Positions 27,501 to 61,181 are shown, counted from the stretch's first letter. The stretch is DNA of 64,000 nt from Spirochaetales bacterium (GCA_037142615.1 JBAXAI010000001.1:140432-204431), one strand, 5' to 3'. Numbers and translations are program-made. Notes: generated from the sequence alone by a model not told the origin.

Positions 27501-27763
27501 CCCTGTCGTTCTGGGACGACGTGGCCCGGCATCGGGCCGGGTTCAAGATGAGCTCGCTGAGTGTTTCGCTGGTCCACTACCTGGAAGACTGGCAGCTCAA
27601 GATCGCCTACTCCGGATCACCGCAGTTGGCCGGTACCAAGCCGCAGTTTCAATGGACAGGCACGCTGAGCGTGACCGCTCAGTGGCTCCCCGTCCCCGAG
27701 CTCAAGACTCAGCTTCAGTGGGACAAAGACGGAAAGCTCTCCATTCCCCGCAATTCGCCCTGA
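24539..27763 (+). CDS. LptD/OstA-like outer-membrane protein (N-terminal OstA-like beta-jellyroll plus large beta-barrel)
   Basis: After the signal peptide, the N-terminal segment (IEADELWYDQDSGEMTARGNVKYT...) resembles the OstA_N fold of LptD. The 900-aa C-terminal region has alternating amphipathic beta-strand character. Confidence 0.5.
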   Translation: MAKRPLLLACLLLIFGVPLSGQADDPGGEDPQVLELRTSGYYELVARARALGLPETGGVSELRQSIATKLGLVLPSVEKNAGKTLTIDSAQEAGVMNVDVTGGGKLIHLSGDLQVTLEDLDKKVTHIIEADELWYDQDSGEMTARGNVKYTMIRESSRETFRGESLTFRLSDAQGVFYGGSSDRSRSVADQNLVFRYQGDAIRRSAGDVVVLDSGTITSSLGEDPYYHVQARKIWVLRPGEWGLQDAVLYLGHIPVFWFPFYFQPSDEMVFNPVLTFSDATGRRGTSLQTTTYVFGQKKKDAAPLSFLQVDDSSTVDKGKVLRGLYLTRGKPAATTVPSSWSLKVLADFYSRLGMLVGVDANLPGLGSLKTFQVTMGMGITRNVTSDGATYSASPFDSLLAPGEQSHWNSSAVLGVTVPFRWGGTLELSDSWWNLSGQFDSDPVFWGDLTSGRSENFSMLALLGLGPATKTAARSNLGSLVWKMSATLPSTLPGLQASAQGTWNWDVKKSVPAKLAEDPQSSFFVPGQLFLPSLSLQWGGDLLKVEATKVSLAESQLPDLLPLSPSPQSPESVAEAAPPGASSDLPELLSSALLASLTVPGAPATWTQSLTWNVNPLFRLDTRFDNSRVLQAQDSNSEIQSSRWTGSWDGRMAYNGSLSNSGFTVGSTVSLHQQMQQAWYLSPSTAPAQKTASDLQDSQQTNSLAQATITAAWKPLGGLHAWQDSSLGYTLGTRLWENKDGKDSFFDLSTASILANQFTAQANWQALDTLKLGFSWRNVLPPQTTNLSGGASLDYQIPLGHLTTRTQWKNTGADWKSDPWESSLEVTPLEGLTFKESFVYDLVKYQPQSSTTQVTWAGLALQYRQLQTLGYHFDPVTRRWVATGVTDFLPQELNTTYSLTVPLQQSWENRQSVSGNFSFSWPINLQQISQMPVSFNYGLQYKLYRFVDLQISQSVVNRTVFLYFPWLIDSLGVSNIQSVNFLTDVWDSLSFWDDVARHRAGFKMSSLSVSLVHYLEDWQLKIAYSGSPQLAGTKPQFQWTGTLSVTAQWLPVPELKTQLQWDKDGKLSIPRNSP

Positions 27764-41830: not shown

Positions 41831-42433
41831 ATGAAGAAAGAGTTCATTCCCTACGAAGCTGTCCGAGACAACGCGCTCAAGCTGGGCCGGGAAATCGCCC
41901 GGTCTGGCTTTGTGCCCGATGTCATCTACGTGTCGCTTCGCGGGGGCGCCTACTTGGGGAATATCCTTTCTGAGTACTTCAAGGTCCTGAGGAAGGGCCA
42001 GCGGCCGGTATTCTACGCGGCCGTGGTCGCTCATTCGTACACTGACATCCAACAACAGTCGTCGGTTCGAGTGGACGGCTGGACCTACGCTCCCGAGTAC
42101 CTGCGTTCGGGAGACAAGGTACTTTTTGTCGATGACATTTTCGACAGCGGCCGAACGATCAATGCGCTGGTCAACATTATTCTGGAGCGCGGACTTCCCC
42201 GAAAGGATATCAAAGTGGCCGTGCACGACTTTAAGGAGTTTCGGGACTCGCCGAGTTTGCCGATTGTGCCTGACTTCTACTGCCGAAAGCATGACCTGCC
42301 GGATCGGGCCCACGATCTGTGGATCCATTACCTGAGTCACGAACTTGTCGGCCTGAGTGCCCAAGAGCGCCAAACCTACTACATCAAGGACGATCCGGAG
42401 ATGGCTGAGGTCATGTCCGTATTCGACGTATGA
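41831..42433 (+). CDS. Phosphoribosyltransferase-family protein (purine PRTase-like)
   Basis: The PRPP-binding motif is VLFVDDIFDSGRT. Confidence 0.6.
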   Translation: MKKEFIPYEAVRDNALKLGREIARSGFVPDVIYVSLRGGAYLGNILSEYFKVLRKGQRPVFYAAVVAHSYTDIQQQSSVRVDGWTYAPEYLRSGDKVLFVDDIFDSGRTINALVNIILERGLPRKDIKVAVHDFKEFRDSPSLPIVPDFYCRKHDLPDRAHDLWIHYLSHELVGLSAQERQTYYIKDDPEMAEVMSVFDV

Positions 42434-45400: not shown

Positions 45401-46956
45401 GTGCGGACCGCCGTTACGTGCTGGCGGTACGGAGTTTCTCGACCGACGGGCGTCCCTTGACGCCGGAAGCCCGCTGGCAGTTCCGGATTGACCGGAGCCC
45501 ACCGGAGCCGGCCGAGTTCACGCTGAAGGCTGATTCCCGTCGACCCGAGGCGCTCGTTGTCCTTCCTGTCGAGGAGCGAGCTTCCGACGAGACCGTTTTG
45601 TACCGTTGGCAGTGGAAGTCCTTTCCCCAGGGTGAAGGCCAAACCGACTGGAAGCCTGTCAACAAGGACGAGCTCCGCTTTGTCAGCCCCGACGACAAAC
45701 TGACCACTCTGACCGTCGAAACCTCTGTCAAGGATCTGGCGGGAAACACAAGCGAGCTTCGGCGTCGCACGGTCATTATCGACCGGAATGTGGCCTACGT
45801 TGACCCGGCTGCGCCAACGACGGGAGATGGCAGCCGCGAGAAACCCGCCGCGAGTTTGGCCATCGCTGTGGCGAAAATGCGTCGGGAGGGTCGCCGTGTG
45901 CTTCTTCTGGCGACAGGGAGTACCCTCGTCGCCTCGCCCCAGGATGTCTCCGGCTTCTCTATTTGGGGTGGACTTCAAAGTGGTGTCTGGGAAACCACAG
46001 CTCAACCGGGGCATTCTACCTTGACTGTCGCCAGGGGTTTTGCCGGCAAGACGCTCCTGGAAAGCTACGCTGGCGCGCTCGACTTGCATCGTCTGGATTT
46101 CTCCAATCCGAGTGAGCCGCTGGAGACTCTTGTCAACAGTCAGAACAGCCGGGTGATCCTGGATCAGGCTTCCTGGCAGTCGAGCTCGGCCTCGATCGGC
46201 TGGCGGCAGACCGGAGGCAGTTTGCAGGTCTCAGGGATGACAGCCTTGCTGGACGGTTCCAAACAGGGCGGTCTCTTTCACCTGACCGATGTCGATGCCA
46301 GCATCCGCGATGTCCGCTGGACAAGTCAGGGGAGCCTGGACAGCCGGTTTGTTTCGTTGCTGCGTTCGAAATTGCTGCTGACCGGAGTTTCCGCCGTAAC
46401 CCGCAAGAACGAGGGCATGGAAACTTTTCTCTGGGCACAGGATAGCGAGGTGACAGCCACCGCGCTCAAGATCCTCGCCGGTGACGGTAGCGCCTGGTGT
46501 ACCGGCTTTGTGCTCAATCATACGACGGCAACGCTGGCAAACTTGGCCATGAACCTCTACGCCTCGCGGGGCAATACTGGTTTCCAGTTGGCCAACAGCC
46601 AGGTCGACCTGCAAAAAGTAACGCTGGAAGTTCAAAGTGGCCAAGAGTTCAACCAAGGGCTCCGTCTGCAGGACTCGCGCCTTTCGATGTGGGAAAGCAG
46701 CATCCAGATTGATGCAGGAAGCTATCAGGGGGGCCTGAGCCTCAACGGTGGGCAGTTGGAACTCGGTGCATCCCGCGTTGCCTTGACCGGCGGAGGACAA
46801 CAAGCCTTCGGGTTGCAGACCTTGGCCGATTGTCTGGTAAAGCTCACCGGCGTGACCTGGGCCCTCGAAAAGAAGACCGCAGGGAAAGGCATCCTCAAGG
46901 AACGCGAGTGGGCAACCGGATCGCAGGACCTTGACAGCCGCGTCAGCGGCTGGTAG
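42430..46956 (+). CDS. Giant (1508 aa) secreted surface protein: Ig-like N-terminal repeats plus right-handed parallel beta-helix (pectate-lyase-fold) C-terminal domains
   Basis: A signal peptide is present. The segment DRNVAYVDPAAPTTGDGSREKPAASLAIAVAK is a typical beta-helix N-cap. It is followed by repetitive G/S/T/N-rich turns of about 22 residues. Confidence 0.55.
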   Translation: MKPLPELILLGVATLLVGPLFGVTADLALSPEPAPGVFAEPVTIVLPQVPGLTVEYRFLDAEERFLPWTDPLLLSALPGESRDYTLRLQTSNSAGERLIKDFRYRIVRPAPALPSVRPSPGLWEHPVLIEATLPEGTRASLDGRSASFPLTLEGVPGERTTYRFDIQPASAKDPAYPPWVYVVDRRGQTVVSLDVLSPVAGSWANKQLLAVHLEGLEQVFWSWGEAPDVAHASLYQAPVLLEKSGPLSVTVWGKPKAGGSDVVKTVRWTSADKTLGASGLPEAGVWRQDLTLPVKSGWQLSLDDGKTWRTQEKERLEPLVASSTKLLVLQWRTLTDPTAWRGLYWMDNREPVPPVADYWGGWNPRLSFSGAPDGWSMVEWTAANGSVTLSDGLWGPSGSWKIPDGVVAATIVTRLVNGKQSRSVAKSFPESGWIRPEWEPWDAKGVLADKKQLPLGGRVLPRAGFQAVYEIGASREVPEPGRASPLLAGPLLPQVPLGSDRTTYVRFAWRDESGTVGPPTAAIPLRIDHLPPATPTVTLGATQVQIQGAEEGLEFLYAVSAKPARPGDSLDFLPGKGTLDRAKLVGGGATPWLHVQAKDASGNLSAPLLNVLVDSGSAGQDWGGLRLIDASLPGGGAPLASDAVLPVNRVTLVAANPDRVPDLYWTEAAELPSNWAVALVPAGRSTVLGIAPGERKTFSTWWNSKTATGWLWDTPRHVVFTLDQAAPQLPRVTLSTQGKVVRDTWTATAAIGQAGDRLTYTLTKDGTPAEDPTSWRALPWPGTLTLDVPDGQRATFRWRLAATSVSGLSREWPTGEPVVIDRTTPPTVTPSLDFFTYQTAPLRVELPHPASLLRMTTTLDGSVPSLPDSSSPLVGNAADFNGVAGQQTLYRFRVRPFSQSGTPGSSSDVYTVLVDLSQAPVSTALAGEANATFTLTGVPEGGLSSAPLQLSLSAAWGTLHYELAEGGPSPHGVEAFSPVFPGKLELTGSEGADRRYVLAVRSFSTDGRPLTPEARWQFRIDRSPPEPAEFTLKADSRRPEALVVLPVEERASDETVLYRWQWKSFPQGEGQTDWKPVNKDELRFVSPDDKLTTLTVETSVKDLAGNTSELRRRTVIIDRNVAYVDPAAPTTGDGSREKPAASLAIAVAKMRREGRRVLLLATGSTLVASPQDVSGFSIWGGLQSGVWETTAQPGHSTLTVARGFAGKTLLESYAGALDLHRLDFSNPSEPLETLVNSQNSRVILDQASWQSSSASIGWRQTGGSLQVSGMTALLDGSKQGGLFHLTDVDASIRDVRWTSQGSLDSRFVSLLRSKLLLTGVSAVTRKNEGMETFLWAQDSEVTATALKILAGDGSAWCTGFVLNHTTATLANLAMNLYASRGNTGFQLANSQVDLQKVTLEVQSGQEFNQGLRLQDSRLSMWESSIQIDAGSYQGGLSLNGGQLELGASRVALTGGGQQAFGLQTLADCLVKLTGVTWALEKKTAGKGILKEREWATGSQDLDSRVSGW

Positions 46957-46960
46957 CAAC

Positions 46961-47692
46961 TCAGGCCTTGTTGAAGAGTTTTTCGCCCTCGACCAGAATG
47001 CCGAGAACTTCTTGCTTTTTGGCGTTGGTCAGGCGCGTGACAAATTCGCCTTCCCGAAGAATCTGGTTGAGCTTGGCCAACACGCGCAGGTGCACTACCT
47101 CGCTGTCCGATACTAGCAGGAAGAAGAGGTGTGTCAGCTTTCCGTCCATGGCCTCATAGTCGGTACCGGCCTTGCAGATTCCGATCACCATGCGTGGAAC
47201 TCCACCGGGGTTCTCTTTGGGGTGCCGAAGGTGAGGGATAGCGACGCCACGGCCTATCCCCGTGGTCACCATCTTTTCGCGGGTGAGAAGCTTGCGCAAG
47301 AACTCATCCGAGTCCTCGATGAGCTCCTGTTCCACCAGGGGAACGATGAGCTGGGCCAGGATTTCTTTTTTGGTGCCAGGCTTGACGTTGTCGACGATGA
47401 ACTCTTCGGTGGTGATGCGAGTGAAGGGGATCAGTCCTTCCGGGTTCTCGAGCACCTTGGCAAGATCATTTTGCGGGACAACATTCATCCGTGAAATCAG
47501 CCAGTCGTCGATCATTGACTTCATAAAACGCCACTGGCTAGCAACCTTGGTGCAGGGGATCTCTCCCCGGGTAATCATGCGGGAGACGGTCTTTTCGGCA
47601 ATCTTCAGGTAGTTTGCTACTTCCGACAAAGTCATGATCTCATTGTCTACCGAGTCACTCATGATCCACCTCGTCTGTCTATTATAGTCCAA
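46961..47692 (-). CDS. HTH (excisionase/MerR-type) DNA-binding domain fused to PTS EIIA(Ntr)-type domain
   Basis: The N-terminal MTLSEVANYLKIAEKTVSRMITRGEIPCTKV is an HTH_17-like motif. The C-terminal PTS_EIIA_2 domain has the phosphorylatable His in GIGRGVAIPHLRH. Confidence 0.8.
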   Translation of the reverse strand: MDYNRQTRWIMSDSVDNEIMTLSEVANYLKIAEKTVSRMITRGEIPCTKVASQWRFMKSMIDDWLISRMNVVPQNDLAKVLENPEGLIPFTRITTEEFIVDNVKPGTKKEILAQLIVPLVEQELIEDSDEFLRKLLTREKMVTTGIGRGVAIPHLRHPKENPGGVPRMVIGICKAGTDYEAMDGKLTHLFFLLVSDSEVVHLRVLAKLNQILREGEFVTRLTNAKKQEVLGILVEGEKLFNKA

Positions 47693-50718: not shown

Positions 50719-51978
50719 CTATTGCAGTTTCTGGCTGGCTTCCATCTGGGCCTGCAACTCGAGAGCCTTGGCCGCCGTATCGCGCATTTCTTTGGCAGGC
50801 AAAAAGTTGGGTAAAACCTGTAGGGCTTTGTCCCACTGGAAAATTGCCTGGTCAAGGTTGCCCTTGGCGTAAAACTCCAAGCCGGCCAGGTAGTATTCCC
50901 TGGCAGAGGTTTCGCGGTCCTGACGTCCCAGGTCACCGAGGTTCATCTTGACCTCGATGCTGACCCGGTCGAAGGGGGTAAGCGTTGTCATCAAGTCGAC
51001 GGTGTAGTTGAAGTTCATCGTCAAGGAGTCGATCAGGATGGTTGCTCCCGCCGACAGCCGGGGACTGCCGGAACGGAAGTTCAGACCCGCCTGGACACCA
51101 AGGTTTTCCAAGAGTGCCCAATTGAAGCCGACCGCCTCCGAAATAGCCTCGGCGTTGTTGAAATCCAGCCCAATCGGCCAGGTAAAGTAAAACGGCAGGT
51201 TGGTATCGAAAGAGAAGGTCATCGGCTTGATGGGACTGTAGGCCAGTCCGACCACCAGAGAAGTTGGTAGGGGGTCCCCGCCAACTGGCAAACCGAGGTT
51301 CTTCATGGTGAGAGCCAGCGCCAGATTATTTTCGCGCGAGTAGTAGAACTTGAGGAAGTTGACCTTGGTAACCGCGCCGAGATCGAAAAGCAAGGTGCTG
51401 GCGGACTGTCCCTGCGCAATGCTTTCGGGAACGCTCCGCGAGGCAAACTTGACGTTGCCGCCGACGGTCACTCCGTTGAAATAAAACGTGTGCAGAAGGT
51501 TGTAGGCGAGGTTGGCCGTACCGATAAACTCCGTATAGTAGCCTTTGGCGGTTTCTGTCGACCACGAGTTTTTGTACCGGGTTCCCCAGGTGTCGATGGC
51601 TGTAAAAGGGAGGTAGAGGAGTTTCGCGCCTAAACCGATGCCCAGATCGGTATCGCGGATCGTGAAGACGGCGGCCTCGAGCCGCGATTCGCCAATCCAG
51701 TCATTGTGATAAATCGAGATTTCGGTGTCTTTGAGCAGGGCGCTGCCGGCGGGGTTGGCCTCCATGTACCCCGAGTCCCTCAGGACGGCGGAATAGGCGG
51801 TTCCCATGGCTTGGTACATGCCACCAGGCGGAATAACCAACGTCCAGAAGGCGGCCTTTCCAGCGTGCGGATCGATGCCAGCGATGTCGGCAAGGGCCTT
51901 GTACCAGTCTTCAAGACCCTGCGACGAGGCCGAGCTTGCCAGAAAAAGGAAAAGGAGGGCCGCCGCGAATCTTTTCAT
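50719..51978 (-). CDS. Hypothetical outer-membrane beta-barrel-like protein with C-terminal TPR-like helix pair
   Basis: The signal peptide is MKRFAAALLFLFLASSASSQ. It is rich in aromatic residues and has alternating beta-strand patterns. The C-terminus is YYLAGLEFYAKGNLDQAIFQWDKALQV. Confidence 0.4.
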   Translation of the reverse strand: MKRFAAALLFLFLASSASSQGLEDWYKALADIAGIDPHAGKAAFWTLVIPPGGMYQAMGTAYSAVLRDSGYMEANPAGSALLKDTEISIYHNDWIGESRLEAAVFTIRDTDLGIGLGAKLLYLPFTAIDTWGTRYKNSWSTETAKGYYTEFIGTANLAYNLLHTFYFNGVTVGGNVKFASRSVPESIAQGQSASTLLFDLGAVTKVNFLKFYYSRENNLALALTMKNLGLPVGGDPLPTSLVVGLAYSPIKPMTFSFDTNLPFYFTWPIGLDFNNAEAISEAVGFNWALLENLGVQAGLNFRSGSPRLSAGATILIDSLTMNFNYTVDLMTTLTPFDRVSIEVKMNLGDLGRQDRETSAREYYLAGLEFYAKGNLDQAIFQWDKALQVLPNFLPAKEMRDTAAKALELQAQMEASQKLQ

Positions 51979-52091
51979 GAAGTTGTCCACATTATACCAT
52001 AAAAGGGTATGATAGCCAAACCTGACGGGTCCTGGATGACCCCGGAGCCAGTGAACTGAAGCCCGCCGTAGCACGCCTTGGAATCTCCCTC

Positions 52092-55000
52092 TTGTTCCTC
52101 CTCGTCGTCGTTCCGGTGTTGCCGGCTCAGCAGACCGACTTCTTCACCTCGATTCTCAAGGGTTTGGGACTTGTCAAGGAAAATCAGGTCACCATTACCG
52201 ACGCCACGTCGTTGATCGAGGCCAAGGATTACGACGGCGCCCTCAAGGTCGCCCTTTCACTGATCGAGCAGCAGAACTACAACGATGCCATGGCCATCGC
52301 CAAGCAGTTGGTTCCTCTCAAGCAACTCGCGCCGGCCGTTAACATTACCTCCAAGCTCATCGCGCTCAACCCACATCCCGAGCAGCAGATCGTGTTCGAC
52401 GGGTACGGAGACTTTCTGGCGATTGCCGACCTGTTGATCAAGGAGCAGGACTACAATGACGCTCTCGTCGTTCTGGCAGGCGTTATCCGCCGTCCCGACT
52501 ACCTCGATGACGCTCAGGTCCTGATCAACAAGGTTCGCGACTTGCGCAACCGCTACAACAGCCTGGGCGACGAACTGGTGGCTGCCCTCAAAGTTGGCGA
52601 CGCCGAGAAAGCCAAGGGGATCATCGTGACCATGGAGTCGGTCGACAAGAACCCCAACGACAAGACTCTGGTTCAGATCAAGCTCGCCAAACGCTCGGTC
52701 AACAAGATCGTGTTTGAGAAGCAAGTCAATGCCATCATGGACGCCGCAGCCCTCCTGTTGAAGAACCGCGAGTACGGCGCAGCCATCCTGAAGTATCTGG
52801 AGGCTGAACCCGTGGCCAAGGCCGAGTTCGCCGAAAACCAATACGGCAACATCACCGAGAACCTCGTGAACCGTTCGTGGGACGACCTGAAGGCAGCGAC
52901 GGCGCTGCTCACACCCCAAGAAGCCGCCCTCAAGACTTCGGCCACGACGGGGACCCGCTTGCTTGGCGGTCCCTTGGCTGATCTCACGGCCGGGCTGGCG
53001 GGCCTGACTGACACCTGGAAGAGCTTCTTTTCGTGGCGAAAGCGGGTGTGGGCAAGCAATCAGCAATTCCAGACTCAGGCCAGCCTGATCTTGAAAAGCC
53101 GCACCCAGGATGACTTCTACCTGACGTATTCGTTGTGGCTTGACCAGGGGCGGCCCACCGCGAAGGCCCCAGAGGGAATCCTGTATGCGATGGACCAACT
53201 CTGGACCGAGGCCATCACCCCGTGGAGTCAACAGATTCGAACCAGGGTCGAAACCCAGTACCAGCAGGCCAAGACAACGTTCGAAGCCGGTCAGTATGAC
53301 GCTTCCCTGACGGCCTTTCAGAGTCTGAAAGTGCTAACCCGTTCTTCGGTGGACCTGCTGGCCTTGAACAACCTGCAAGCCTACGTTCTCGACGACGGTT
53401 CGCTTGACAGGGCCTACACGGCACGCTTGAAGGACACCCTTCCTCTGGCCGTTCAAGTTCAAAGCCGCCTGCTTCTGGCCAACCAGGGTGCTCAGGCCAG
53501 CCTGGACTTGAAGGCGCTCGCTGTTGCGTCTTCGGACCGGAACCTCGACCGACCGGGGCTCGAAGCAGCCCGAGCGAATGTTCGTACCATGCGCGAGAAC
53601 TTCATTGCCGATGCCGAAAAAACGACGTCGGGAATCCGCCGGGAAACTTCGCTGGCCCAGGACGGGTGGAAGCTCCTCGACCCCCTCGCGGTGTTGAACG
53701 GTTGGCTGGCCCAGTGGAATACTTTCCGGCAGAAGGCGGCCGGGCAGGAAGCCGTCTTTGTAGACCGCCGGGGCAAGCTTGACTACGACCTGCTTGACGG
53801 CAGGAACGCCCAGTTGGTGGCCTCGTTGGCCGCAGCCCAGACCCAGGTCCAGGGTGTCGTCTCGGTGGTCGCAGGAAATACCCAGACTAAGCGGCTGCCC
53901 CTGCAAGCATCCGTGGCTCTCGAGGCGCTCCGGCCGTTGCAGGATGTTCTACAAAAAGACATCGCCGCTTTCATCGGCCTTTACGACGGCGAAACCCCCG
54001 AGGTCAAAACGGCCGCTGTTCTGGCTTGGCCACCCAAGGGCCGCACTTTGCTGGCTGCGCTTGCCCAGAGCCAGGCATTGCAGACCCAATTGTTAGCCAC
54101 CGCCAGGGCGAACTACGCCCAGTCCCAGACGCTCAAGAAGCAGGGGCAAGACCTCGGGCCTCAGGTCGAAGCCGCGATTGGGGCCGAAAACTTCCCGCAA
54201 GCGAAGACGCTTCTGACGCAGATGTCAGGCCTTTATACCCAGTCGCTCGCCGCGCAAGATGACCCGGTGTTCGCCGCTTCGGCCGAAAAAGAAAACGCCC
54301 GCCTGAATGACCTCTATAACAAGGGCTTTCAGAATCTGGTGGTAAAGGATGTGCGAAAGTACATCACCGACGGTAGCCAGGCCTACCTGAACGCGCAATT
54401 TGCCGCCGCCGAGCAGGTTCTCACCAAGGCTAAGTCGCGCTGGGCCGAGGCGTACGGCGACGCCAACGAGGAAGTTGCCCGTTGGCTCAACCTGGCGACT
54501 ATCGCCCAAGGTGCGTCGACCGGCCGCGAGGTGAACGCGATCGACCCGTTGTACAACGAGGTTCAGCAGTTGCTGAACTTTGCCCGCCGCGACTACAACG
54601 ACGCGCAGGCCCTGCTCAAAGCGGGCAAGACCAAGGACTCCGACGCTCTGTTCGACCGCGCCATCGGAGTCTTGAGCAAGATTCTGCTCATTTATCCGTT
54701 CAATCAAGAAATGGGTCTGCTCAAGTTGCAGATCGAAAAGGACCGCAACCCCGATGGGTTCTCGGCCTTGTTCAAGACCAAGCTCGACACGGCCGTGGCC
54801 CAGATTGCCAAGAACCCGGCTCAGGCCTACACCGACCTCCAGGACCTCGACAAGATTCAGCCTGGAGACGCATCGTTGGCTGCAGCCATCAAGCGGGTAC
54901 GCACGGTGCTCGGACTGGAAAAACAGCCCCTGGATCCCGCCAAGAAGATCCAGGCCGACAAACTCTACGCGCAAGCCAAGGCGGCTTACGACAGTGGTAA

Positions 55001-55301
55001 CATCAACCGTTTTGCTCAGGCCAGGGTCGACGTTGACAGCGCGCTTTCGCTGATCCAGCCCACCAGTGACGCCCGCTATACGGCACTCAAGGACTTGCTG
55101 TCGCAGTCCACAAACACCTCCGTGACGTTCTCGTTGGCTCAGCAGGCAGAGTGGGAATCCATCCTCGGCGCGGTCAACCAAGGCTCCTTCGTGATCGCTT
55201 CTGGCTTGCTAGACGGGTTCAAGAGAAAGTACCCTAACACCGTGAGAGACTCCCGCGTCGTGCAATACACCGACAAGATTTCCAACGGACTCAATCGATG
55301 A
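52092..55301 (+). CDS. Large (1069 aa) secreted all-helical hypothetical protein
   Basis: It has a TTG start and a hydrophobic N-terminus. It contains long A/L/Q-rich predicted helices with repeated NYNDA(M/L) and DYNDAQ segments. Its stop overlaps the next start (ATGA). Confidence 0.45.
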   Translation: MFLLVVVPVLPAQQTDFFTSILKGLGLVKENQVTITDATSLIEAKDYDGALKVALSLIEQQNYNDAMAIAKQLVPLKQLAPAVNITSKLIALNPHPEQQIVFDGYGDFLAIADLLIKEQDYNDALVVLAGVIRRPDYLDDAQVLINKVRDLRNRYNSLGDELVAALKVGDAEKAKGIIVTMESVDKNPNDKTLVQIKLAKRSVNKIVFEKQVNAIMDAAALLLKNREYGAAILKYLEAEPVAKAEFAENQYGNITENLVNRSWDDLKAATALLTPQEAALKTSATTGTRLLGGPLADLTAGLAGLTDTWKSFFSWRKRVWASNQQFQTQASLILKSRTQDDFYLTYSLWLDQGRPTAKAPEGILYAMDQLWTEAITPWSQQIRTRVETQYQQAKTTFEAGQYDASLTAFQSLKVLTRSSVDLLALNNLQAYVLDDGSLDRAYTARLKDTLPLAVQVQSRLLLANQGAQASLDLKALAVASSDRNLDRPGLEAARANVRTMRENFIADAEKTTSGIRRETSLAQDGWKLLDPLAVLNGWLAQWNTFRQKAAGQEAVFVDRRGKLDYDLLDGRNAQLVASLAAAQTQVQGVVSVVAGNTQTKRLPLQASVALEALRPLQDVLQKDIAAFIGLYDGETPEVKTAAVLAWPPKGRTLLAALAQSQALQTQLLATARANYAQSQTLKKQGQDLGPQVEAAIGAENFPQAKTLLTQMSGLYTQSLAAQDDPVFAASAEKENARLNDLYNKGFQNLVVKDVRKYITDGSQAYLNAQFAAAEQVLTKAKSRWAEAYGDANEEVARWLNLATIAQGASTGREVNAIDPLYNEVQQLLNFARRDYNDAQALLKAGKTKDSDALFDRAIGVLSKILLIYPFNQEMGLLKLQIEKDRNPDGFSALFKTKLDTAVAQIAKNPAQAYTDLQDLDKIQPGDASLAAAIKRVRTVLGLEKQPLDPAKKIQADKLYAQAKAAYDSGNINRFAQARVDVDSALSLIQPTSDARYTALKDLLSQSTNTSVTFSLAQQAEWESILGAVNQGSFVIASGLLDGFKRKYPNTVRDSRVVQYTDKISNGLNR

Positions 55302-58300
55302 CAGGTGTCAAACGGTGGATGCTCACCGTGCTGCTGGCGGGTATGAGTTCCCTTCTTGGGGCCCAAACCACCTTCTGGGACGATCCGGAAACCTTGGGCT
55401 TCAAAGCCTCCGCCTTTCCCGTCACCGTGGGGAACGCCCAGGAGGCCGGCGCTTTCTGGCAGGTGAAGGCTGGCGTGGAGGGAGGCTGGCCACAGTATTA
55501 CCTGGCTTTCGTCCACCGTCATCTGGGTGACCAGACATGGTCGGCTCCCCGAAATGTGCTCGGGCCCTTCACGCTGACCGGCGGCGATTCCCAGTTCTAT
55601 TCGGCGCTTTGGACCGCCTCGGGCGATCTCTGGGTGGCGGCGCTGGACAAAGAGGGCCAGGTTACTATTTTTCGGTCGAAAGACCAGGGGAACACCTTTG
55701 CTTCCGAAGACGTGCTGACCAGCCCGCGAACACAAACCCTTCTGGTTCCTCGGTTGTTTCTCAACGCCGCCGATGAACCCCTTCTTGTTGTCAACGAGGC
55801 CGACGACGTGAGTATCCGCCTTTCCTCGGCCCTTTTTCACGGGGGAGTCTGGAGCGACTTGAAGCCGTTGGCCCCGGCCAGCGAAACGCTCAGCAGTTAT
55901 CAGATTTCGGTCTCGGCTCACGGAAGCGTGCTCACGGCCGTCTACCAGAGCCCCAACAGCCGCAACAACTACCAGATCTACCGGCGGGACTCGCTCGACG
56001 GGGGTCTGAGCTGGGGACCCTCGGTGCTGCTTTCCGACTTTGACCCGACGGTGAATCCGGACCTTTACGACAACCAGCGGCCGAACGCCCTTTGGTACAA
56101 GGACCGCCTCTACGTCGTTTGGGAGCGCAAGACCGCCGGTACGCAGACCCTGCTGCAGTGGCTGGCCTTCGACAATGCCGGCAAAGTCGTTCCCGGTTCG
56201 GCGCGCGAACTCACCACGAACGACTATTCTTCGCGCAATCCCCAGTTGTTCAGTTTTGGCGGCCGCCTGCAAATGACCTGGTTTGAGAACCAGAGCCGCG
56301 CCTACAATCAAACGCTGGCAACCTGGAACGCCGAGGTTGCCAGCTTCACCTCGAAAGTGCTTTCTGACAGCCCCGGCAACAACTACCTCGGTCAGGCTAT
56401 CGGCCTTGGTAGCGATCTTTACGTGTTCTGGCAGTCAGTTTTTGGCTCAGGAACAGCGGCGACTTCTCAGGTAGTGGTGAGGGGACCAGACCTCCGCGTC
56501 GCCGCGCCAACCATTGTGCCGGTAAACTTCCTCGCCGGCCGGGCTTCCAGTAACGCCGACTTCCGGGTCCAGATTTTGTACCCGCGCGATATCTCGGGAA
56601 TCACCGGAGCCAGTTGGTCATTTGGCAAGGATTCTGCTCAGGTTCCGGAACCCGTCGTGACTCTGACCGGGAAGGACCCGACTCTGGTCGTCCATGACAG
56701 CTTGGAGGGCGAAACGTGGCTGGCTGTGCGCGTACGGGACTTGGCCGGCAACTGGTCAGCTCCCGCCCTTCAGAAACTGGTGCTCGATTTGACTCCCCCT
56801 GGTTCGGTGCTTTTCCGCCTTCCGGCGGTGGATACCGAAGGCTACCTGACCTCGAACACGTTTGACCTGTCTTGGGACACCTCGACCGGCGAGACTTCGG
56901 CCTGGTCCTGGCGTTTGGACCGCATCGGCGATTTTGCTGTACCGGCGACCCTCCAGAAACTGAAACTCGACCGGGCTCCGCTCACCCCGACGGGAGCGGT
57001 TGCCCAGTTCTCGAGAACCAACCTGGAAGACGGCGTGTGGAGCCTGACGGTTGCGGCCTTCGACGAAGCGGGAAACCAGGGGCCTTCCTCCAGCTTCTTT
57101 TTCCGCCTCAACAAGTACAAGCCCTTCACGCTGATCAACCGGGTCGTGATCTCCGAGGACGACTTCCAGCGCTTCACCCTCGAGCTCCAGGGCCTCGGCT
57201 TCACCGCTGGGGGGCGAGTGACCACCGTGGTTCTGGACCGCGACGGCAAAGCTCCCTGGGACTATCAGCTTGCGCCGGCGACACTTACCAACACGGTCAT
57301 CACGGCCCGGGCGGCAGATCTGCAACAGGGGGTCTACCGCATCGGAGTGCTGCACAGCGTCCGCGGTCCCACGTTCGCCACCAAGACGCTGCAAGTCGGT
57401 CAGAACGGCACCGTGAAGCTCGGGGACTTCCGAAACCTGGATGAGACGGTCTGGGAGTTCTTCCGCGGAGTTGCAGTCTACTTCTCGGTCAATACCGCGT
57501 TCTTCTGGGTCGTAGTCGCCTTCCTTGCGCTGGCGATTGCCTTCTCGGCGAGGCAATTGGGCCGGGTATGGACCGAGATGCGCCGGGTTGACCGTCAGGC
57601 AAACGACCTGTTTACCGATACCTATAGCAAGAGAGCCGAACTGAGCAAGATCGCCTCACTTGGCAGGAGAGTTTCCATGCAACGCAGAGGCCTTGGCCTG
57701 ACCATCAAGTTCGCAGCCTCGATTCTCGCCTTGACCATCGCCGTCATCCTCATGCTGGCGCTCGTCCTTGGCTTCGTGATCACCGAGAACTCGCGGACCA
57801 GCCTGGGGAACGCGCTTCAGCAGCGGGCCGATGTGCTCCTCGAAGGAATGGTTTCGGGGGCGAGGTCCAACCTGCCTACGGCCGAAAACAACCTGTCGGA
57901 GCTCATCCTGCTGCCCTCGCAGATCGCGTCGATGCGCAAGGATGACCGTCATTTGGACGCGATTTTTGCTACCATTACAGGACGAATCAACCGTGAGCCA
58001 GGCAAGAAACCGGGGTATTCGTACCTCTGGTCGACAAACGATCCCGACTATCTCAAAAAGATTGATACCCCGCAACTCAATCGTGGCGTGTCGACCTGGA
58101 AGTCGACCGACGCAGTCGAAAAGGCCTACCGCGAACTGCAGACTTCGCTCAATCAACGGGCCCGCCAACAGGTCGGCGACTTGACAACGCAGGTCGATGC
58201 GCTCAACAAGCAGATTGTCGACTACAAGGGTTCTGTCACCGACGCCAAGTACCTCGACCTCACAGCCAGTGTCGGCGATCTCAAGACACAGATCGCCACC

Positions 58301-60037
58301 CAGCTCGCTACGGTCGGAAAAGAGAGCTACACGGAGCCGAAGTACGACACTGCGACGTTGCTCACCAACCCGATAACCCGCTTTGACTTCTACAAACCAG
58401 TTCTCTATTACTCCGAGGGCGACAACGAGAACTTCGTCAAGGGTCTTGTCCGGCTGGAAGTCTCTACCGAGTCGATTGTCCGCGACATCACGACCGCACA
58501 GCAGAACCTCGTGGTGACCACGTTGATCATCGCTTTGGTGGCCCTTTTCCTCGGCCTTATCGGTGCATTGGTGCTGTCACGCATTACGGTCGGTCCGATC
58601 CGACTCCTCGCTGATGGCGTGAAGGTGATCCGCGACACCGAAGACAAAACCCTGCTCGAAGGCCACGTGATCCGCGTGAACACTCGCGACGAGCTGTCGG
58701 AACTGGCCCAAGCGATTAACCAGATGACGCGCGGGCTGGTCGATGGTGCCAACAAGACCCAGGACCTCACCAAAGGAAAAGTCGAGCAGAAGACCCTTTT
58801 CATCCCGCTCGACAAGGACGACGACGACCAGAAACTCACAACGTTCCACCGGGATCTACCGGACATCGAGGTGTTCGCGTACTACGAGGGCGCCAAGCTT
58901 GTCTCGGGGGACCTCTACGAGTTCCGTCAGCTTGACACCCGGGACGGTAGGAACCTGAACTCCCCGTGGTACGGAATCATGAAGGGTGACGTGTCGGGCA
59001 AGGGCGTCGAAGCGGGCATGATCATGGCCATCGCCGCCATGTTCGTCACGACCTTCTTCCGCAAATGGACCGAGTCCCGCGACGCGAAAGACACCAAAAT
59101 TGACAGCCTGCTCTACCAGGTCAACGATACCCTCGAGCCTATCCTTGCCGAGGCTGGGCGTGGTCTTTTCGTGGCGCTGAACATTGGCGTGCTCAACACC
59201 AAAACCGGACACCTTCGTTATGGTCAGGCCGGTGACAACATTCTGCACGTTTGGCGTGGAAGAGAAGGGCGCTACGAAACCGTACCGCTTCCCAACACCA
59301 TTTCGGTCGGCGCCATGCCGACCTCCATGCATCGCAACGACTTGAAGTACGCCAACCGCGACCTGGCAATCGAGGTCGGCGACACACTGCTGTATTTCAC
59401 CGACGGTATCGAAGAAAGTCAGAGCCACTACCGCGATGCCAACTGGCACGAGGTCGCCTACTACAACCCTGAGGATCCCACCACGGTTGCCCCCCCCGGT
59501 TCACGGCGGGAAGTGCAGGTAGAAGGGGCACCAGAAGGGGTGAGGCGGACCGTTCAGGCCCAAGGGACCGAAGACTTCAGCCCCGAACGCATGCAGGCCG
59601 TGATCGAAGCCTTCTACCGGCGTGAGGTTTACGAACTCCGCAAGAAGAACAGCCCGGACCCGAACCTCGTCTACCATTTTGACTTCACCGGTTGCGACGG
59701 TTCGGCCAAGCAGCTCGTGACGGCGCTGATTTCGATCGACCGGATTTTCCGTCTGGTCCCCGACCCGAAGGCAACCGAAGAGGACCGCATTCAACTCGAC
59801 CTTGTCGAAGACGCGTTCCTGAGAACTCATTTCGCGGAATACGAGCGATACTTCCGCGACGGTTACCAGACCTACGAGAAGGCCGACAAAGCGAAAGGGG
59901 ATCTCGCCGACGCCGAAGGCAACAAACTCGTCGGTGGCAAGCGCGTCATTCAGGACCCCGCCTACATCTGGTATAACCACCTCAAGGAAGACCATCAGTT
60001 CGACGACCTGACGCTGCTGGCGATTCGGCGCAAATGA
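55298..60037 (+). CDS. Membrane-bound sensor serine phosphatase: extracytoplasmic BNR/Asp-box beta-propeller plus Ig-like repeats, 2 TM, HAMP, SpoIIE/PP2C (RsbU-like) domain
   Basis: A signal peptide is present. The Asp-box motifs are SKDQGNTF and SLDGGLSW. The TM segments are VYFSVNTAFFWVVVAFLALAIAF and LTIKFAASILALTIAVILMLALVLGFVI. A HAMP-like segment follows the TMs. The PP2C motifs are GDVSGKGVEAGMIMA, RYGQAGDNILHVWR, LLYFTDGIEES and DDLTLLAIRR. Confidence 0.75.
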   Translation: MTGVKRWMLTVLLAGMSSLLGAQTTFWDDPETLGFKASAFPVTVGNAQEAGAFWQVKAGVEGGWPQYYLAFVHRHLGDQTWSAPRNVLGPFTLTGGDSQFYSALWTASGDLWVAALDKEGQVTIFRSKDQGNTFASEDVLTSPRTQTLLVPRLFLNAADEPLLVVNEADDVSIRLSSALFHGGVWSDLKPLAPASETLSSYQISVSAHGSVLTAVYQSPNSRNNYQIYRRDSLDGGLSWGPSVLLSDFDPTVNPDLYDNQRPNALWYKDRLYVVWERKTAGTQTLLQWLAFDNAGKVVPGSARELTTNDYSSRNPQLFSFGGRLQMTWFENQSRAYNQTLATWNAEVASFTSKVLSDSPGNNYLGQAIGLGSDLYVFWQSVFGSGTAATSQVVVRGPDLRVAAPTIVPVNFLAGRASSNADFRVQILYPRDISGITGASWSFGKDSAQVPEPVVTLTGKDPTLVVHDSLEGETWLAVRVRDLAGNWSAPALQKLVLDLTPPGSVLFRLPAVDTEGYLTSNTFDLSWDTSTGETSAWSWRLDRIGDFAVPATLQKLKLDRAPLTPTGAVAQFSRTNLEDGVWSLTVAAFDEAGNQGPSSSFFFRLNKYKPFTLINRVVISEDDFQRFTLELQGLGFTAGGRVTTVVLDRDGKAPWDYQLAPATLTNTVITARAADLQQGVYRIGVLHSVRGPTFATKTLQVGQNGTVKLGDFRNLDETVWEFFRGVAVYFSVNTAFFWVVVAFLALAIAFSARQLGRVWTEMRRVDRQANDLFTDTYSKRAELSKIASLGRRVSMQRRGLGLTIKFAASILALTIAVILMLALVLGFVITENSRTSLGNALQQRADVLLEGMVSGARSNLPTAENNLSELILLPSQIASMRKDDRHLDAIFATITGRINREPGKKPGYSYLWSTNDPDYLKKIDTPQLNRGVSTWKSTDAVEKAYRELQTSLNQRARQQVGDLTTQVDALNKQIVDYKGSVTDAKYLDLTASVGDLKTQIATQLATVGKESYTEPKYDTATLLTNPITRFDFYKPVLYYSEGDNENFVKGLVRLEVSTESIVRDITTAQQNLVVTTLIIALVALFLGLIGALVLSRITVGPIRLLADGVKVIRDTEDKTLLEGHVIRVNTRDELSELAQAINQMTRGLVDGANKTQDLTKGKVEQKTLFIPLDKDDDDQKLTTFHRDLPDIEVFAYYEGAKLVSGDLYEFRQLDTRDGRNLNSPWYGIMKGDVSGKGVEAGMIMAIAAMFVTTFFRKWTESRDAKDTKIDSLLYQVNDTLEPILAEAGRGLFVALNIGVLNTKTGHLRYGQAGDNILHVWRGREGRYETVPLPNTISVGAMPTSMHRNDLKYANRDLAIEVGDTLLYFTDGIEESQSHYRDANWHEVAYYNPEDPTTVAPPGSRREVQVEGAPEGVRRTVQAQGTEDFSPERMQAVIEAFYRREVYELRKKNSPDPNLVYHFDFTGCDGSAKQLVTALISIDRIFRLVPDPKATEEDRIQLDLVEDAFLRTHFAEYERYFRDGYQTYEKADKAKGDLADAEGNKLVGGKRVIQDPAYIWYNHLKEDHQFDDLTLLAIRRK

Positions 60038-60903
60038 GCCGTGCCCTGCTGCTGGGGTTGTCACTTTTTCTGTCATCGCTGGCGAGTGGCCAGGACTCGG
60101 CACACCAATTTCAGCTGAGAAATGGAGATACCGACCAGCTTCTCCTCTATTGGCTCTTGGATTCGTCGCCGGTGACGCAGACGACCCTGCAAAGTCGGCT
60201 CGACAGCGCCCCCGTAGCGCAGCGTCCTCTGGCGCACGGTGAAACCAGTCTGTTGGAGTACCGCGCTGACGAAACCCTTTTGCTTTGTTTTGTTCCTTGG
60301 AATCAGTCTCCAGGTTACCAGGATGAGCTGATCGGGGCCGCCGTGAGGGTCAAGACCCTGACTCCTGGCAAGCAGATTTCGTTCAACCACCAGGCCTGGG
60401 ACTCAACACCCAGTGTGCAACTTCGTGCCAGCCTTCAGGACTGGGGTCTCACCACGGGGACCTTGGCCCTTGACGGCAAACCGGGGGACTGGGCCGGCCT
60501 CCCCACCATGGCACGCTTCGGTGGAGGATTCCCTGAAGGAAGCCCGGCTTCGGTTCAGTTTGCTGTTACTGACCAGGCACTCTGGTTCCATTTTGTTGAT
60601 CGAGCCAAGCCGGTTGCTGTCACCTGGGTTCTCAAGGCAGGCAACCGCTGGTGGGAAATCGCTTCCGCCGGAGCAGAGGGCCGGGTCTGGCTGTTTGGCC
60701 CCGAGCTCCCCAAGGGCCTTGCCGTGGGAACCCGCTTGCGCGCTGGAAACGATCTCGAGGGGTGGATTGTCTTGGATCGCCTGCCCGAGGCGGACCGTAC
60801 GGCTCTGCTTGGCTCAACCCTTGAGTTCCGTCGCCTTGTCGAAAACGGCGCATCTGCCGATAATGCCCTCATGACAGAGTTTTCGTTGGCAGAGCTTCCA
60901 TGA
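60034..60903 (+). CDS. Hypothetical secreted protein
   Basis: The signal peptide is MSRALLLGLSLFLSSLASGQ. Both ends overlap the flanking genes (ATGA). Confidence 0.4.
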   Translation: MSRALLLGLSLFLSSLASGQDSAHQFQLRNGDTDQLLLYWLLDSSPVTQTTLQSRLDSAPVAQRPLAHGETSLLEYRADETLLLCFVPWNQSPGYQDELIGAAVRVKTLTPGKQISFNHQAWDSTPSVQLRASLQDWGLTTGTLALDGKPGDWAGLPTMARFGGGFPEGSPASVQFAVTDQALWFHFVDRAKPVAVTWVLKAGNRWWEIASAGAEGRVWLFGPELPKGLAVGTRLRAGNDLEGWIVLDRLPEADRTALLGSTLEFRRLVENGASADNALMTEFSLAELP

Positions 60904-61181
60904 GTCGTGGCCGTTTCTTTTGTGAACATTGCGGCGCTCAGGTTCCTCTGGAAGTTTCGACCTGCCCCAAGTGTCATCGCGGTTTCGGCGATGTTCTGTG
61001 TCCGCGGTGCCAACATAGCGGACCTTCACCGACCTTTGTCAACGGCTGTCCGTCATGTGGTTATCTTTCCGTGGCCCCCGAAAGGGCCAGTGCTCGTTCC
61101 TCACGCTTTGTTCCTGCCATGACGGTGCTGTTGATTTTGCTCGCAGCTGCGGCCGTGGTCGCTTGGGTGGTTCGCCGATGA
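60900..61181 (+). CDS. Double zinc-ribbon protein with C-terminal TM anchor
   Basis: Three CxxC pairs are present: CEHCGAQ...CPKCHRGF...CPRCQH...CPSCGY. The C-terminal segment VLLILLAAAAVVAWVV is a TM anchor. Confidence 0.5.
   Translation: MSRGRFFCEHCGAQVPLEVSTCPKCHRGFGDVLCPRCQHSGPSPTFVNGCPSCGYLSVAPERASARSSRFVPAMTVLLILLAAAAVVAWVVRR

Follow-up and report, generated by a model that had tools for sequence, protein, structure and literature searches.

A predicted three-pass SpoIIE/RsbU-type receptor phosphatase with two periplasmic domains in the Spirochaetales

The gene at positions 55,298 to 60,037 of the window, that is, of the whole 64-kb stretch of Spirochaetales DNA that was analysed, most probably encodes a three-pass receptor phosphatase of the inner membrane, with a dual periplasmic input, which belongs to an envelope module and acts on a substrate encoded elsewhere; the probability of this reading is put at about 70%. 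The preliminary description of the sequence had taken the frame for a sensor PP2C phosphatase, and this assignment holds, the frame being real and its catalytic domain falling within the SpoIIE/RsbU clade of PP2C enzymes. In fact, NCBI holds an identical protein (P0001), entered as 'SpoIIE family protein phosphatase [Spirochaetales bacterium]'. The features of the gene are as follows, with residues counted from its start.

55298..60037, +, sensor PP2C phosphatase ORF; ATG start, 1579 aa plus stop, complete
55298..55363, +, signal peptide, read from the sequence; residues 1-22, ending SLLGA and followed by QTT
55388..56482, +, seven-bladed Asp-box beta-propeller (predicted model); residues about 31-395
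55676..55699, +, Asp-box 1, SKDQGNTF; residues 127-134
55991..56014, +, Asp-box 2, SLDGGLSW; residues 232-239
56489..56791, +, Ig-like beta-sandwich domain 1 (model); residues about 398-498, motif DLAGNWS (481-487)
56804..57106, +, Ig-like beta-sandwich domain 2 (model); residues about 503-603, motif DEAGNQG (589-595)
57119..57406, +, third beta-sandwich domain (model); residues about 608-703
57467..57562, +, TM helix 1, out to in (hydropathy); residues 724-755
57563..57688, +, short K/R-rich cytoplasmic loop (positive-inside rule); 11 K/R in residues 753-803 (51 aa)
57689..57796, +, TM helix 2, in to out (hydropathy); residues 798-833
57797..58492, +, second periplasmic sensor domain, roughly 230 aa; residues about 834-1065
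58493..58570, +, TM helix 3, out to in (hydropathy and model); residues 1066-1091 (1066-1105 by hydropathy)
58571..58738, +, HAMP, directly after TM helix 3 (Pfam HAMP); residues 1092-1147
58841..60031, +, SpoIIE/RsbU-type PP2C catalytic domain (Pfam SpoIIE); residues about 1182-1578
59417..59986, +, family-specific insertion in the PP2C domain; residues about 1374-1563
59894..59947, +, single copy of the tandem repeat KGDxxDxEGxKLVxGxRV; residues 1533-1550

Family and gene neighbourhood

The sensor phosphatase is no oddity, but one of an uncharacterised family kept across Treponema and related spirochaetes. Its ectodomain is common to more than 300 cluster representatives (304 at E <= 1e-30), most of the best 150 of these 304 being about 1500-1650 aa long, and the 80 genome loci are spread over Treponema, Breznakiella, Alkalispirochaeta and MAGs of Spirochaetales, with the relatives annotated as "SpoIIE family protein phosphatase". 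T. pallidum is absent among the loci and proteins listed as matches; judged by synteny, size, TM layout and annotation rather than by sequence alignment, TP0854 is apparently its counterpart of the present protein. TP_0854 is a 173 kDa protein with a predicted SPase I cleavage site at A25-Q26 and TM helices at 753-775, 816-838 and 1085-1107 (PMC5015957 supplement), it adjoins TP_0855 and TP_0856 (PMC5015957 supplement; PMC11668736), and TPASS_20854, annotated as 'SpoIIE family protein phosphatase', has been detected by MS (PMC11668736).

The genes surrounding the sensor gene are the following.

50719..51978, -, divergent UPF0164 gene (TP0856/TP0858 family) with C-terminal TPR; Pfam UPF0164, E 3.5e-39
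51979..52091, no strand, AT-rich divergent intergenic region; sigma-70-like hexamers on both strands (consensus matches only)
52092..55301, +, upstream, translationally coupled gene of a TP0855-like exported helical protein, 1069 aa
60034..60903, +, gene of an exported 289-aa protein, function not assigned; overlaps the sensor gene downstream
60900..61181, +, gene of a small double-zinc-ribbon protein with a C-terminal TM anchor; Pfam DZR

The start ATG of the sensor gene shares 4 bp with the stop of the TP0855-like gene, whose homologues at two other loci (L001 and L002) bear the Pfam domains TP_0855_helical and TP_0855_C. This arrangement recurs in the family: of the 68 loci with sufficient flank, 59 have a TP0855-like gene as the immediate upstream neighbour in the same orientation, a stop/start overlap is present in 46 of the 60 loci that have this gene, and a UPF0164 gene, for which the ATG at 51978 is the likely start here, lies upstream of the sensor gene in 44 of 54 loci. 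Downstream, the neighbours differ by clade. The 289-aa protein is homologous to a protein of roughly 330 aa encoded downstream in other clades (hhalign 97.4%), a gene like its own being present in 13 loci in total; homologues of the double-zinc-ribbon protein, whose gene is possibly the last of the operon, are likewise encoded downstream of the sensor gene in 13 loci. At 24 loci of the Treponema clade, the sensor gene is followed after about 16 nt by the gene of a helical, cytoplasmic protein of 107 aa.

Membrane layout and periplasmic domains

Hydropathy and the positive-inside rule give a self-consistent predicted topology, in which the ectodomain would lie outside, TM1 would lead to a basic loop inside, TM2 to a further domain outside, and TM3 to HAMP and PP2C inside. 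The propeller region thereby falls outside and not in the cytoplasm, in keeping with the preliminary description of an exported N-terminal part, and the first 700 residues or so comprise the Asp-box propeller and the Ig-like domains; the A-Q junction at the end of the signal peptide is kept in relatives. The same description had counted two TM segments, whereas hydropathy gives three TM helices plus the signal peptide, and it had omitted the extracytoplasmic domain between TM2 and TM3. The HAMP-like linker it had proposed is borne out by a Pfam HAMP match above the cut-off (26.5 bits versus 25), which is shared by 28 of 31 relatives, and is followed in the model by a 37-residue linker helix (model positions 304-340) reaching to about residue 1168.

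The second periplasmic domain is predicted by AF2 (pLDDT about 90-96) to begin with a long helix, followed by about five strands, and to carry a helical hairpin as an insertion, an order of strands and helices which fits PDC/Cache, and it is therefore described as PDC/Cache-like. The assignment of the fold is based on the predicted model, because no Pfam Cache HMM matches the domain; the search of the PDB by sequence gave no significant match to it either. The NCBIfam model of the WalK sensor region matches this domain weakly, and a Foldseek match to the WalK-YycH model 9a5d probably lands here as well.

Both Asp-boxes named earlier, of the S-x-D-x-G-x-T-W type, are present and conserved among 62 genome orthologues, the first with S in 58 and D in 53, the second with D in 52 and W in 61. 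The comparison with sialidases fared less well. The model shows seven blades and not the six of a sialidase, and BNR_2 remains below the cut-off in this protein (12.6 bits versus 31.4, E 0.087), reaching significance only across the family (19 of 31 relatives at E <= 1e-3, best 3e-9). By structure, the nearest relatives of the propeller are PL42/GH145 enzymes and lectins of the PLL type, and sialidases are among the top matches; sequence identity to these matches is 8-14%. The enzymes and lectins concerned, namely the PL42 L-Rha-alpha-1,4-GlcA lyase FoRham1, BT3686 and BACINT_00347 (both GH145) and the PLL-type lectins, show 8-13% identity and are soluble, unlike the present protein. Profile-to-PDB searches gave no significant sequence match of the propeller to sialidases (all E >= 0.017), and short stretches among these non-significant matches fall on Asp-box 2. 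The sialidase-like RIP/RFP motif reads AFP here, with Ala in place of the Arg that is kept in 67 of 124 representatives. On the other hand, the polar residues N259, E276 and R277 are more than 90% conserved among the 124 representatives, as are Q260, R261 and P262 among 31 diverse relatives, and the conserved polar residues could form a defined binding site.

As to the Ig-like part, two repeats with a DxAGN motif had been described. The motifs stand, D481, A483 and N485 as well as D589, G592 and N593 being invariant in the 31 diverse relatives, and D481, A483, G484, N485 and W486 of the first domain being invariant in relatives; the count does not, as the model contains three beta-sandwich domains. 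The Big_13 match to the second Ig-like domain is sub-threshold in this protein, and Big_13 matches 10 of the 31 relatives.

Two other roles have to be weighed for this ectodomain. The propeller and Ig-like domains might be structural, docking onto the TP0855-like protein or an outer-membrane UPF0164 protein, with the Cache-like domain as the sole small-molecule sensor; this is possible, though on balance doubtful. The translational coupling with the TP0855-like gene and the UPF0164 synteny speak for it, as do the apparent lack of conservation of sialidase-type catalytic and binding residues and the fact that TM2, the Cache-like domain, TM3, HAMP and PP2C would by themselves suffice as a sensor of the RsbU type, in the manner of Chlamydia RsbU or SiaA; nevertheless, the nearest structural relatives of the propeller bind or cleave sugars, and its conserved polar residues could mark a defined site. 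Conversely, the ectodomain might be an active glycoside hydrolase or lyase (a sialidase, or GH145- or PL42-like), which would make the protein a bifunctional enzyme-sensor. Such an activity agrees with the top structural matches, with the Asp-boxes and with the BNR_2 matches in the family, but it is rendered very unlikely by the low identity to those same matches, by the lack of a significant match in the sequence-profile search and by the RIP-like Arg, kept in little more than half of the representatives and replaced here. For the receptor with dual periplasmic input, a carbohydrate remains a plausible signal for the ectodomain.

The PP2C domain and its target

The SpoIIE/RsbU-type PP2C domain of the earlier description is firmly supported: Pfam SpoIIE (PF07228) scores 68.7 bits versus a cut-off of 25 (E 8e-19) and matches 31 of 31 relatives, and the motifs GD, DxxG(K/H)G, TDG and DDxT are all present with a complete set of metal-binding Asp residues. 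Residues D1205, D1231, G1234, G1236, D1369, G1370, D1569, D1570 and T1572 do not vary in any of the 62 orthologues, and position 1235 is K or H. The model of the C-terminal part (pLDDT 88.8) comprises the PDC-like domain, HAMP, the linker helix and the PP2C domain with its insertion. Foldseek places the PP2C domain with RssB, Rv1364c, SiaA, RsbX and SpoIIE (E 1e-9 to 1e-6, TM-score normalized to the target about 0.65), and profile matches to PDB 3ke6, 3t91 and 5ucg were obtained.

The large insertion reported ahead of the terminal DDLTLL motif is also real, and family-wide. From TDG to DDxT, the present protein has 202 aa; in 103 family members this spacing has a median of 161 aa and never falls below 146 aa; the profile match to the solved structures of B. 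subtilis RsbU/SpoIIE and of Rv1364c stops at TDG, where the insertion (roughly 100-150 aa) starts, and the matched chains of solved SpoIIE reach only about 50 residues past TDG. In the model, the insertion forms an alpha/beta subdomain (pLDDT >90, model positions 545-690), followed by the repeat stretch (pLDDT <60, 690-725). The copy number of the repeat is 1 here, 3-4 in eight relatives (P0004-P0011), 9 in another (P0002) and 0 in the Treponema clade.

It had been noticed that no gene for a STAS protein, a kinase or a sigma factor is nearby, and the searches agree: none was found in the 64-kb window, either by Pfam scans, which covered almost every greedily called ORF of 70 aa or more (with 3790-4236 (+) scanned in the wrong frame), or by jackhmmer on the six-frame translation. 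Moreover, in 80 other genomes the roughly 10 kb around the sensor gene contain no gene for a STAS protein, an RsbW-like kinase or a sigma factor. The step from this absence to a non-canonical substrate was overstated, since a missing STAS neighbour is weak evidence. Chlamydia rsbV2 is reported to share a putative operon with miaA and not with rsbU (PMC11619594), and the anti-sigma-factor antagonist of Treponema is encoded elsewhere, at TP0220 (PMC3105029). By analogy, remote partner genes are plausible for the sensor phosphatase.

A non-canonical output nevertheless deserves consideration, the target being some other phosphoprotein, such as a substrate of a Hanks kinase or the adjacent lineage-specific small cytoplasmic protein, with the insertion serving as docking surface. 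The absence of STAS genes around the sensor gene in all 80 genomes would fit this, as would the insertion, confidently modelled and about 95 aa or longer in every family member, the 107-aa helical protein of the 24 Treponema-clade loci and the tail-anchored double-zinc-ribbon protein of the present clade. We consider it unlikely: the small downstream genes are not family-wide (24 and 13 of about 80 loci), STAS antagonists do exist in Treponema genomes, and the PP2C domain is closest to enzymes of the RsbU/SpoIIE/SiaA type, the known substrates of which are STAS or STAS-like proteins. It is also conceivable that the domain has become a pseudo-phosphatase acting as an adaptor, as is the PP2C-type domain of E. 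coli RssB. The C-terminal domains of RssB are in fact among the best Foldseek matches, and the large insertion could serve protein-protein contacts; with the metal-coordinating Asp residues, DxxG(K/H)G and TDG invariant in the 62 orthologues, a pattern which suggests selection for catalysis, this is extremely unlikely.

Under the preferred reading of a receptor phosphatase with a remote substrate, the signal peptide would be cleaved and the propeller and three Ig-like domains would stand in the periplasm, held by TM1. Binding of a periplasmic ligand or partner, which could be a glycan, an envelope component or the TP0855-like protein itself, would be relayed by TM3, HAMP and the linker helix to the metal site of the PP2C domain, a path which is taken from other RsbU-type phosphatases and presumed to apply here. 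Such binding would switch the removal of phosphate from a phospho-Ser/Thr protein whose gene lies elsewhere in the genome; as with Chlamydia RsbU, this substrate is most probably a partner-switching protein of the STAS type.

Comparison with known systems

The RsbU of Chlamydia trachomatis, in which a sensor domain is flanked by TM helices and followed by HAMP, is likewise an RsbU-type PP2C driven by a periplasmic sensor domain. To our knowledge, it has no N-terminal propeller-Ig ectodomain, third TM helix or large PP2C insertion; it also differs in lacking the TP0855/UPF0164 synteny and in having known substrates, RsbV1 and RsbV2. It has been described as responding to a periplasmic signal (PMC11619594).

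A similar likeness in the catalytic part is found with SiaA of the Pseudomonas aeruginosa SiaABCD module (structural match 6k4e, E 5e-7), a membrane-anchored HAMP-PP2C protein. The partner, kinase and output genes of SiaA share its operon, whereas none adjoins the sensor gene here, and the ectodomains are unrelated. B. subtilis RsbU and SpoIIE and M. tuberculosis Rv1364c share with the present protein the Pfam SpoIIE domain, the metal-binding motifs and the profile or fold matches; RsbU and Rv1364c are cytoplasmic, and SpoIIE crosses the membrane several times in its N-terminal region but is not known to have large periplasmic domains.

Finally, Foldseek matches the periplasmic sensor of Bacteroides BT4663 for heparin/heparan sulphate (4a2m), with low TM-scores of 0.12-0.16. 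The sensor domain of BT4663 combines two beta-propellers with an Ig-like (Y_Y_Y) module, and BT4663 signals through a histidine kinase, a response regulator and an AraC domain, not through a PP2C; the Y_Y_Y HMM matches 2 of 31 relatives of the sensor phosphatase.

Architecture and membrane topology

The sensor phosphatase is encoded on the + strand by an ORF that opens with ATG at 55298 and closes with the stop codon at 60037, exactly as in the preliminary description, and its 1579 residues are identical to the NCBI entry 'MAG: SpoIIE family protein phosphatase [Spirochaetales bacterium]' (P0001), the G+C content of the window being about 59%. Pfam assigns a SpoIIE domain to residues 1225-1378 (68.7 bits, cut-off 25), which upholds the proposed PP2C domain, and a HAMP domain to residues 1092-1147 (26.5 bits, cut-off 25); Big_13 was sub-threshold (21.3 bits) and BNR_2 fell under its cut-off of 31.4 (12.6 bits, E 0.087). 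When 31 diverse relatives were scanned singly, SpoIIE was matched in all 31, HAMP in 28, BNR_2 in 19 (best E 3e-9), Big_13 in 10 and Y_Y_Y in 2, and thus the BNR assignment proposed earlier, although not significant in the sensor phosphatase itself, holds at family level. Hydropathy indicates an N-terminal signal peptide and three TM helices (724-755, 798-833 and 1066-1105) rather than the two TM segments originally described. The stretch between TM1 and TM2 (residues 753-803) contains 11 K/R in 51 aa and can therefore be assigned to a cytoplasmic loop, which in turn places the 700-residue N-terminal part outside, the location already expected for the BNR region. Residues 834-1065 (about 230 aa) also lie outside, constituting a second extracytoplasmic region that had been overlooked, with HAMP and PP2C inside.

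Relatives conserve the two Asp-boxes (127-134 and 232-239) as well as the two DxAGN motifs of the Ig-like repeats. The AF2 model of residues 24-722 (12 sequences, mean pLDDT 81) is all-beta and consists of a propeller followed by three beta-sandwich domains, one Ig-like domain more than had been noticed. When four strands are counted to a blade and the Asp-boxes are placed between strands 3 and 4, the propeller has seven blades, the last one being completed by an N-terminal strand. In Foldseek searches against the PDB the first matches were GH145 BT3686 and PL42 FoRham1 (E ~1e-11, TM-score on target 0.65-0.68), followed by sialidases with similar E-values and poor superposition; the BT4663 glycan-sensor ectodomain was also among the matches. 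Moreover, the sialidase matches of the ectodomain profile to PDB sequences were all non-significant (E of at least 0.017), the short ones sitting on the second Asp-box, and the RIP-like motif reads AFP in the window protein, its Arg being kept in 67/124 representatives. Given this Foldseek ranking, the non-significant profile matches and the AFP motif, the propeller domain is, as judged from model and profiles, an Asp-box propeller which is not of sialidase type and is probably not catalytic; 'sialidase-type' was too specific a label.

The C-terminal model (residues 829-1579, 62 sequences, mean pLDDT 88.8) starts with a long helix and about five strands broken by a helical hairpin, the order of a PDC/Cache-like domain, and continues with TM3, HAMP, a 37-residue helix and PP2C. 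Foldseek matched it to a WalK-YycH model, probably across the sensor-TM-HAMP part, and its PP2C to P. aeruginosa RssB, Rv1364c, SiaA, RsbX, SpoIIE and MtX. The profile of the second periplasmic domain gave, against PDB sequences, only matches due to coiled-coil composition, apolipoproteins among them, all of which were set aside as uninformative, and the PP2C profile recovered Rv1364c, SpoIIE and RssB in alignments ending at or before the TDG motif. Since D1205, D1231, D1369, D1569 and D1570 are invariant across 62 genome orthologues, the sequence suggests that the PP2C domain is an active enzyme. The large insertion reported ahead of DDLTLL is indeed present, the TDG-to-DDxT spacing being 202 aa; in 103 relatives this spacing never falls below 146 aa (median 161), and the insertion is therefore a family trait. 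In the model it is an alpha/beta element folded with pLDDT >90 and followed by a low-confidence stretch. Variation is confined to its last part, where a tandem repeat, KGDxxDxEGxKLVxGxRV (window 59894-59947), is found once in the window protein, 3-4 times in the homologues P0004-P0011, nine times in the homologue P0002 and not at all in the Treponema clade; its copy number differs even between close relatives, and the repeat stretch is modelled with low confidence. On the whole, the preliminary description was largely right; what it lacked was one of the three TM helices, the sensor domain between TM2 and TM3, and one of the three Ig-like domains.

Distribution and gene neighbourhood

A homologue search with the ectodomain alone was empty and one with the full-length protein worked, a difference that probably stems from the word index and not from biology, and an exhaustive profile search was used. 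At E <= 1e-3 this found 6927 cluster representatives, of which 304 reached E <= 1e-30. Most of the best 150 are proteins of 1450-1700 aa whose match spans the full ectodomain, and about a third are shorter or match only part of the profile. A scan of one genome per species yielded 80 loci from Treponema (T. parvum, T. primitia, a MAG labelled T. denticola, JC4 and C6A8), Breznakiella, Alkalispirochaeta and many Spirochaetales MAGs, and only three matches, weak and to the Ig domains, outside spirochaetes. The sensor phosphatase is one member of a populous family annotated generically in databases, with names such as 'PP2C family serine/threonine-protein phosphatase [Treponema parvum]', 'SpoIIE family protein phosphatase [Treponema brennaborense]' and 'serine phosphatase RsbU'. 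Under such a generic name lies a new architectural form of the known membrane-bound RsbU-type sensor phosphatases: compared with Chlamydia RsbU and Pseudomonas SiaA, which are likewise membrane-bound sensors of this type, members of the family have in addition an ectodomain of 700 residues, made up of propeller and Ig-like domains and carried by an extra TM helix, as well as a second, Cache-like sensor and a catalytic domain with a conserved insertion.

The gene lies among the following features of the window:
50719-51978 (-): UPF0164 gene (Pfam)
51979-52091: divergent intergenic region, ~112 bp, AT-rich
52092-55301 (+): TP0855-like gene, sharing 4 bp with the start of the sensor phosphatase gene
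60034-60903 (+): gene for a 289-aa protein
60900-61181 (+): gene for a 93-aa protein, with a double zinc ribbon at the N-terminus and a TM anchor at the C-terminus, overlapping the stop of the 289-aa gene

Of the 68 loci with enough flank, 59 have a TP0855-like homologue immediately upstream and in the same orientation; the stop/start overlap is present in 46 of the 60 loci having this gene, and 44/54 loci have a divergent UPF0164 gene farther upstream. The UPF0164 family is regarded as restricted to Treponema. Homologues of the TP0855-like protein carry the Pfam domains TP_0855_helical and TP_0855_C; lenient-threshold Pfam gave nothing meaningful for the TP0855-like protein of the window, for the 289-aa protein or for a 107-aa neighbour found in the Treponema clade. 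The longest UPF0164 ORF (GTG 52074) is probably over-extended; ATG 51978 gives a proper signal peptide, and the earliest possible start of the TP0855-like ORF, TTG 52092, gives a signal peptide devoid of a basic n-region. The region between both genes contains sigma-70-like hexamer pairs on both strands, as consensus matches only. Terminator sites were no commoner than in shuffled sequence and thus mark no operon ends.

Downstream, the genes are lineage-specific. In the window clade, 13 loci encode an exported protein of about 300 aa (two clusters joined by hhalign, 97.4%), which is followed by the double zinc-ribbon protein, itself with homologues at 13 loci. The Treponema clade has instead, about 16 nt downstream at 24 loci, a helical protein of about 107 aa (for instance 10204-10524 in locus L002 and 14561-14938 in locus L054), probably cytoplasmic. 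It matches no Pfam family significantly and does not occur in the clade of the window. In one distant relative, the phosphatase and the small helical protein are followed by an ECF sigma factor (Sigma70_r2/r4_2) and a VWA/YfbK_C protein (L002 10925-13367; L003 7592-10034), a pair not present in the window.

Probable correspondence with a Treponema pallidum gene

By synteny, size, TM layout and annotation, rather than by sequence alignment, we infer that the window gene corresponds to T. pallidum TP0854. TPASS_20854, annotated as 'SpoIIE family protein phosphatase', has been detected by MS and listed as potentially related to pathogenesis; TPASS_20855 is a hypothetical protein of high abundance, and TPASS_20856 belongs to UPF0164 (PMC11668736). 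TP0855 has been regarded as a putative envelope protein of high abundance, and UPF0164 members are counted among the known or putative outer-membrane proteins of T. pallidum. For TP_0854, a layout matching that of the window protein has been predicted, with SPase I cleavage at A25-Q26 and TM segments at 753-775, 816-838, 858-877 and 1085-1107 (supplement of PMC5015957), that at 858-877 having no counterpart among the three helices of the window protein. The published N-terminal fingerprint (I18-C19, A25-Q26) matched none of the homologous proteins listed, and T. pallidum was not among the 120 Treponema proteins listed in a T. parvum-seeded search. Literature on TP0854, TP0855 and Treponema SpoIIE/PP2C was searched and yielded no functional study, nor was a published function found for TP0854, TP0855 or TP0856.

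No existing concept is overturned by these results. Architecture and neighbours are both fixed across Treponema and related spirochaetes, and the main weight falls on the conserved TP0856-TP0855-TP0854 module, which apparently reaches the syphilis spirochaete. T. pallidum has few recognisable signal-transduction systems, and therefore a domain map and a testable module hypothesis should be useful to spirochaete biologists.

Signal, substrate and other genes of the window

In the sensor phosphatase, periplasmic input would be received by the propeller-Ig module, the Cache-like domain or both, and would travel through TM3, HAMP and the linker helix to the PP2C metal site, the mode of regulation proposed for other RsbU-type phosphatases. 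The enzyme would then dephosphorylate a phosphoprotein encoded elsewhere. As the proteins closest to the propeller in structure are sugar-binding or sugar-cleaving, a glycan is a plausible ligand; equally plausible as periplasmic signal is a protein partner, considering how tightly the gene is coupled to its TP0855-like neighbour.

As regards the substrate, the earlier statement that no STAS, kinase or sigma gene is nearby was borne out: Pfam scans of nearly all called ORFs of at least 70 aa found none in the 64-kb window, and none is among the recurrent neighbours of the gene in the genome loci. Likewise, jackhmmer with three STAS seed sequences gave no match in the window and none among 860 neighbouring ORFs, a negative that agrees with Pfam and is only as good as these seeds. 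The non-canonical substrate suggested on these grounds is possible, but the mere absence of neighbouring STAS genes does not favour it. The most economical guess is a remote STAS protein, given that the PP2C is of RsbU/SpoIIE/SiaA type, that Treponema has an anti-sigma antagonist, TP0220 (PMC3105029), and that in Chlamydia a transmembrane RsbU can work with partners of which at least one is encoded in another putative operon (PMC11619594). A more far-reaching proposal, improbable as a whole, is a spirochaete-specific trans-envelope signalling device with three components, namely the TP0856-like UPF0164 protein as candidate outer-membrane channel, the abundant helical TP0855-like protein of the periplasm and the TP0854-like receptor phosphatase. 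The seven-bladed propeller/Ig stalk of the phosphatase would extend toward the outer membrane and report on a glycan or lipid, on its uptake or its status in the envelope, into cytoplasmic Ser/Thr phospho-signalling, via a non-STAS substrate docked by the PP2C insertion.

Elsewhere in the window, a GH18 chitinase-like gene (6027-7373, +; Pfam E 6e-88), about 48 kb from the sensor gene, is the only carbohydrate-active enzyme seen. Two very large ORFs have no Pfam match, one of 1074 aa (24539-27763, +) and one of 1508 aa (42430-46956, +), the latter with a counterpart of 1493 aa in the same relative position of locus L001. Finally, a fusion of an HTH_17 DNA-binding domain and PTS EIIA-2 (46961-47692, -) recurs near the sensor gene in 12 loci.
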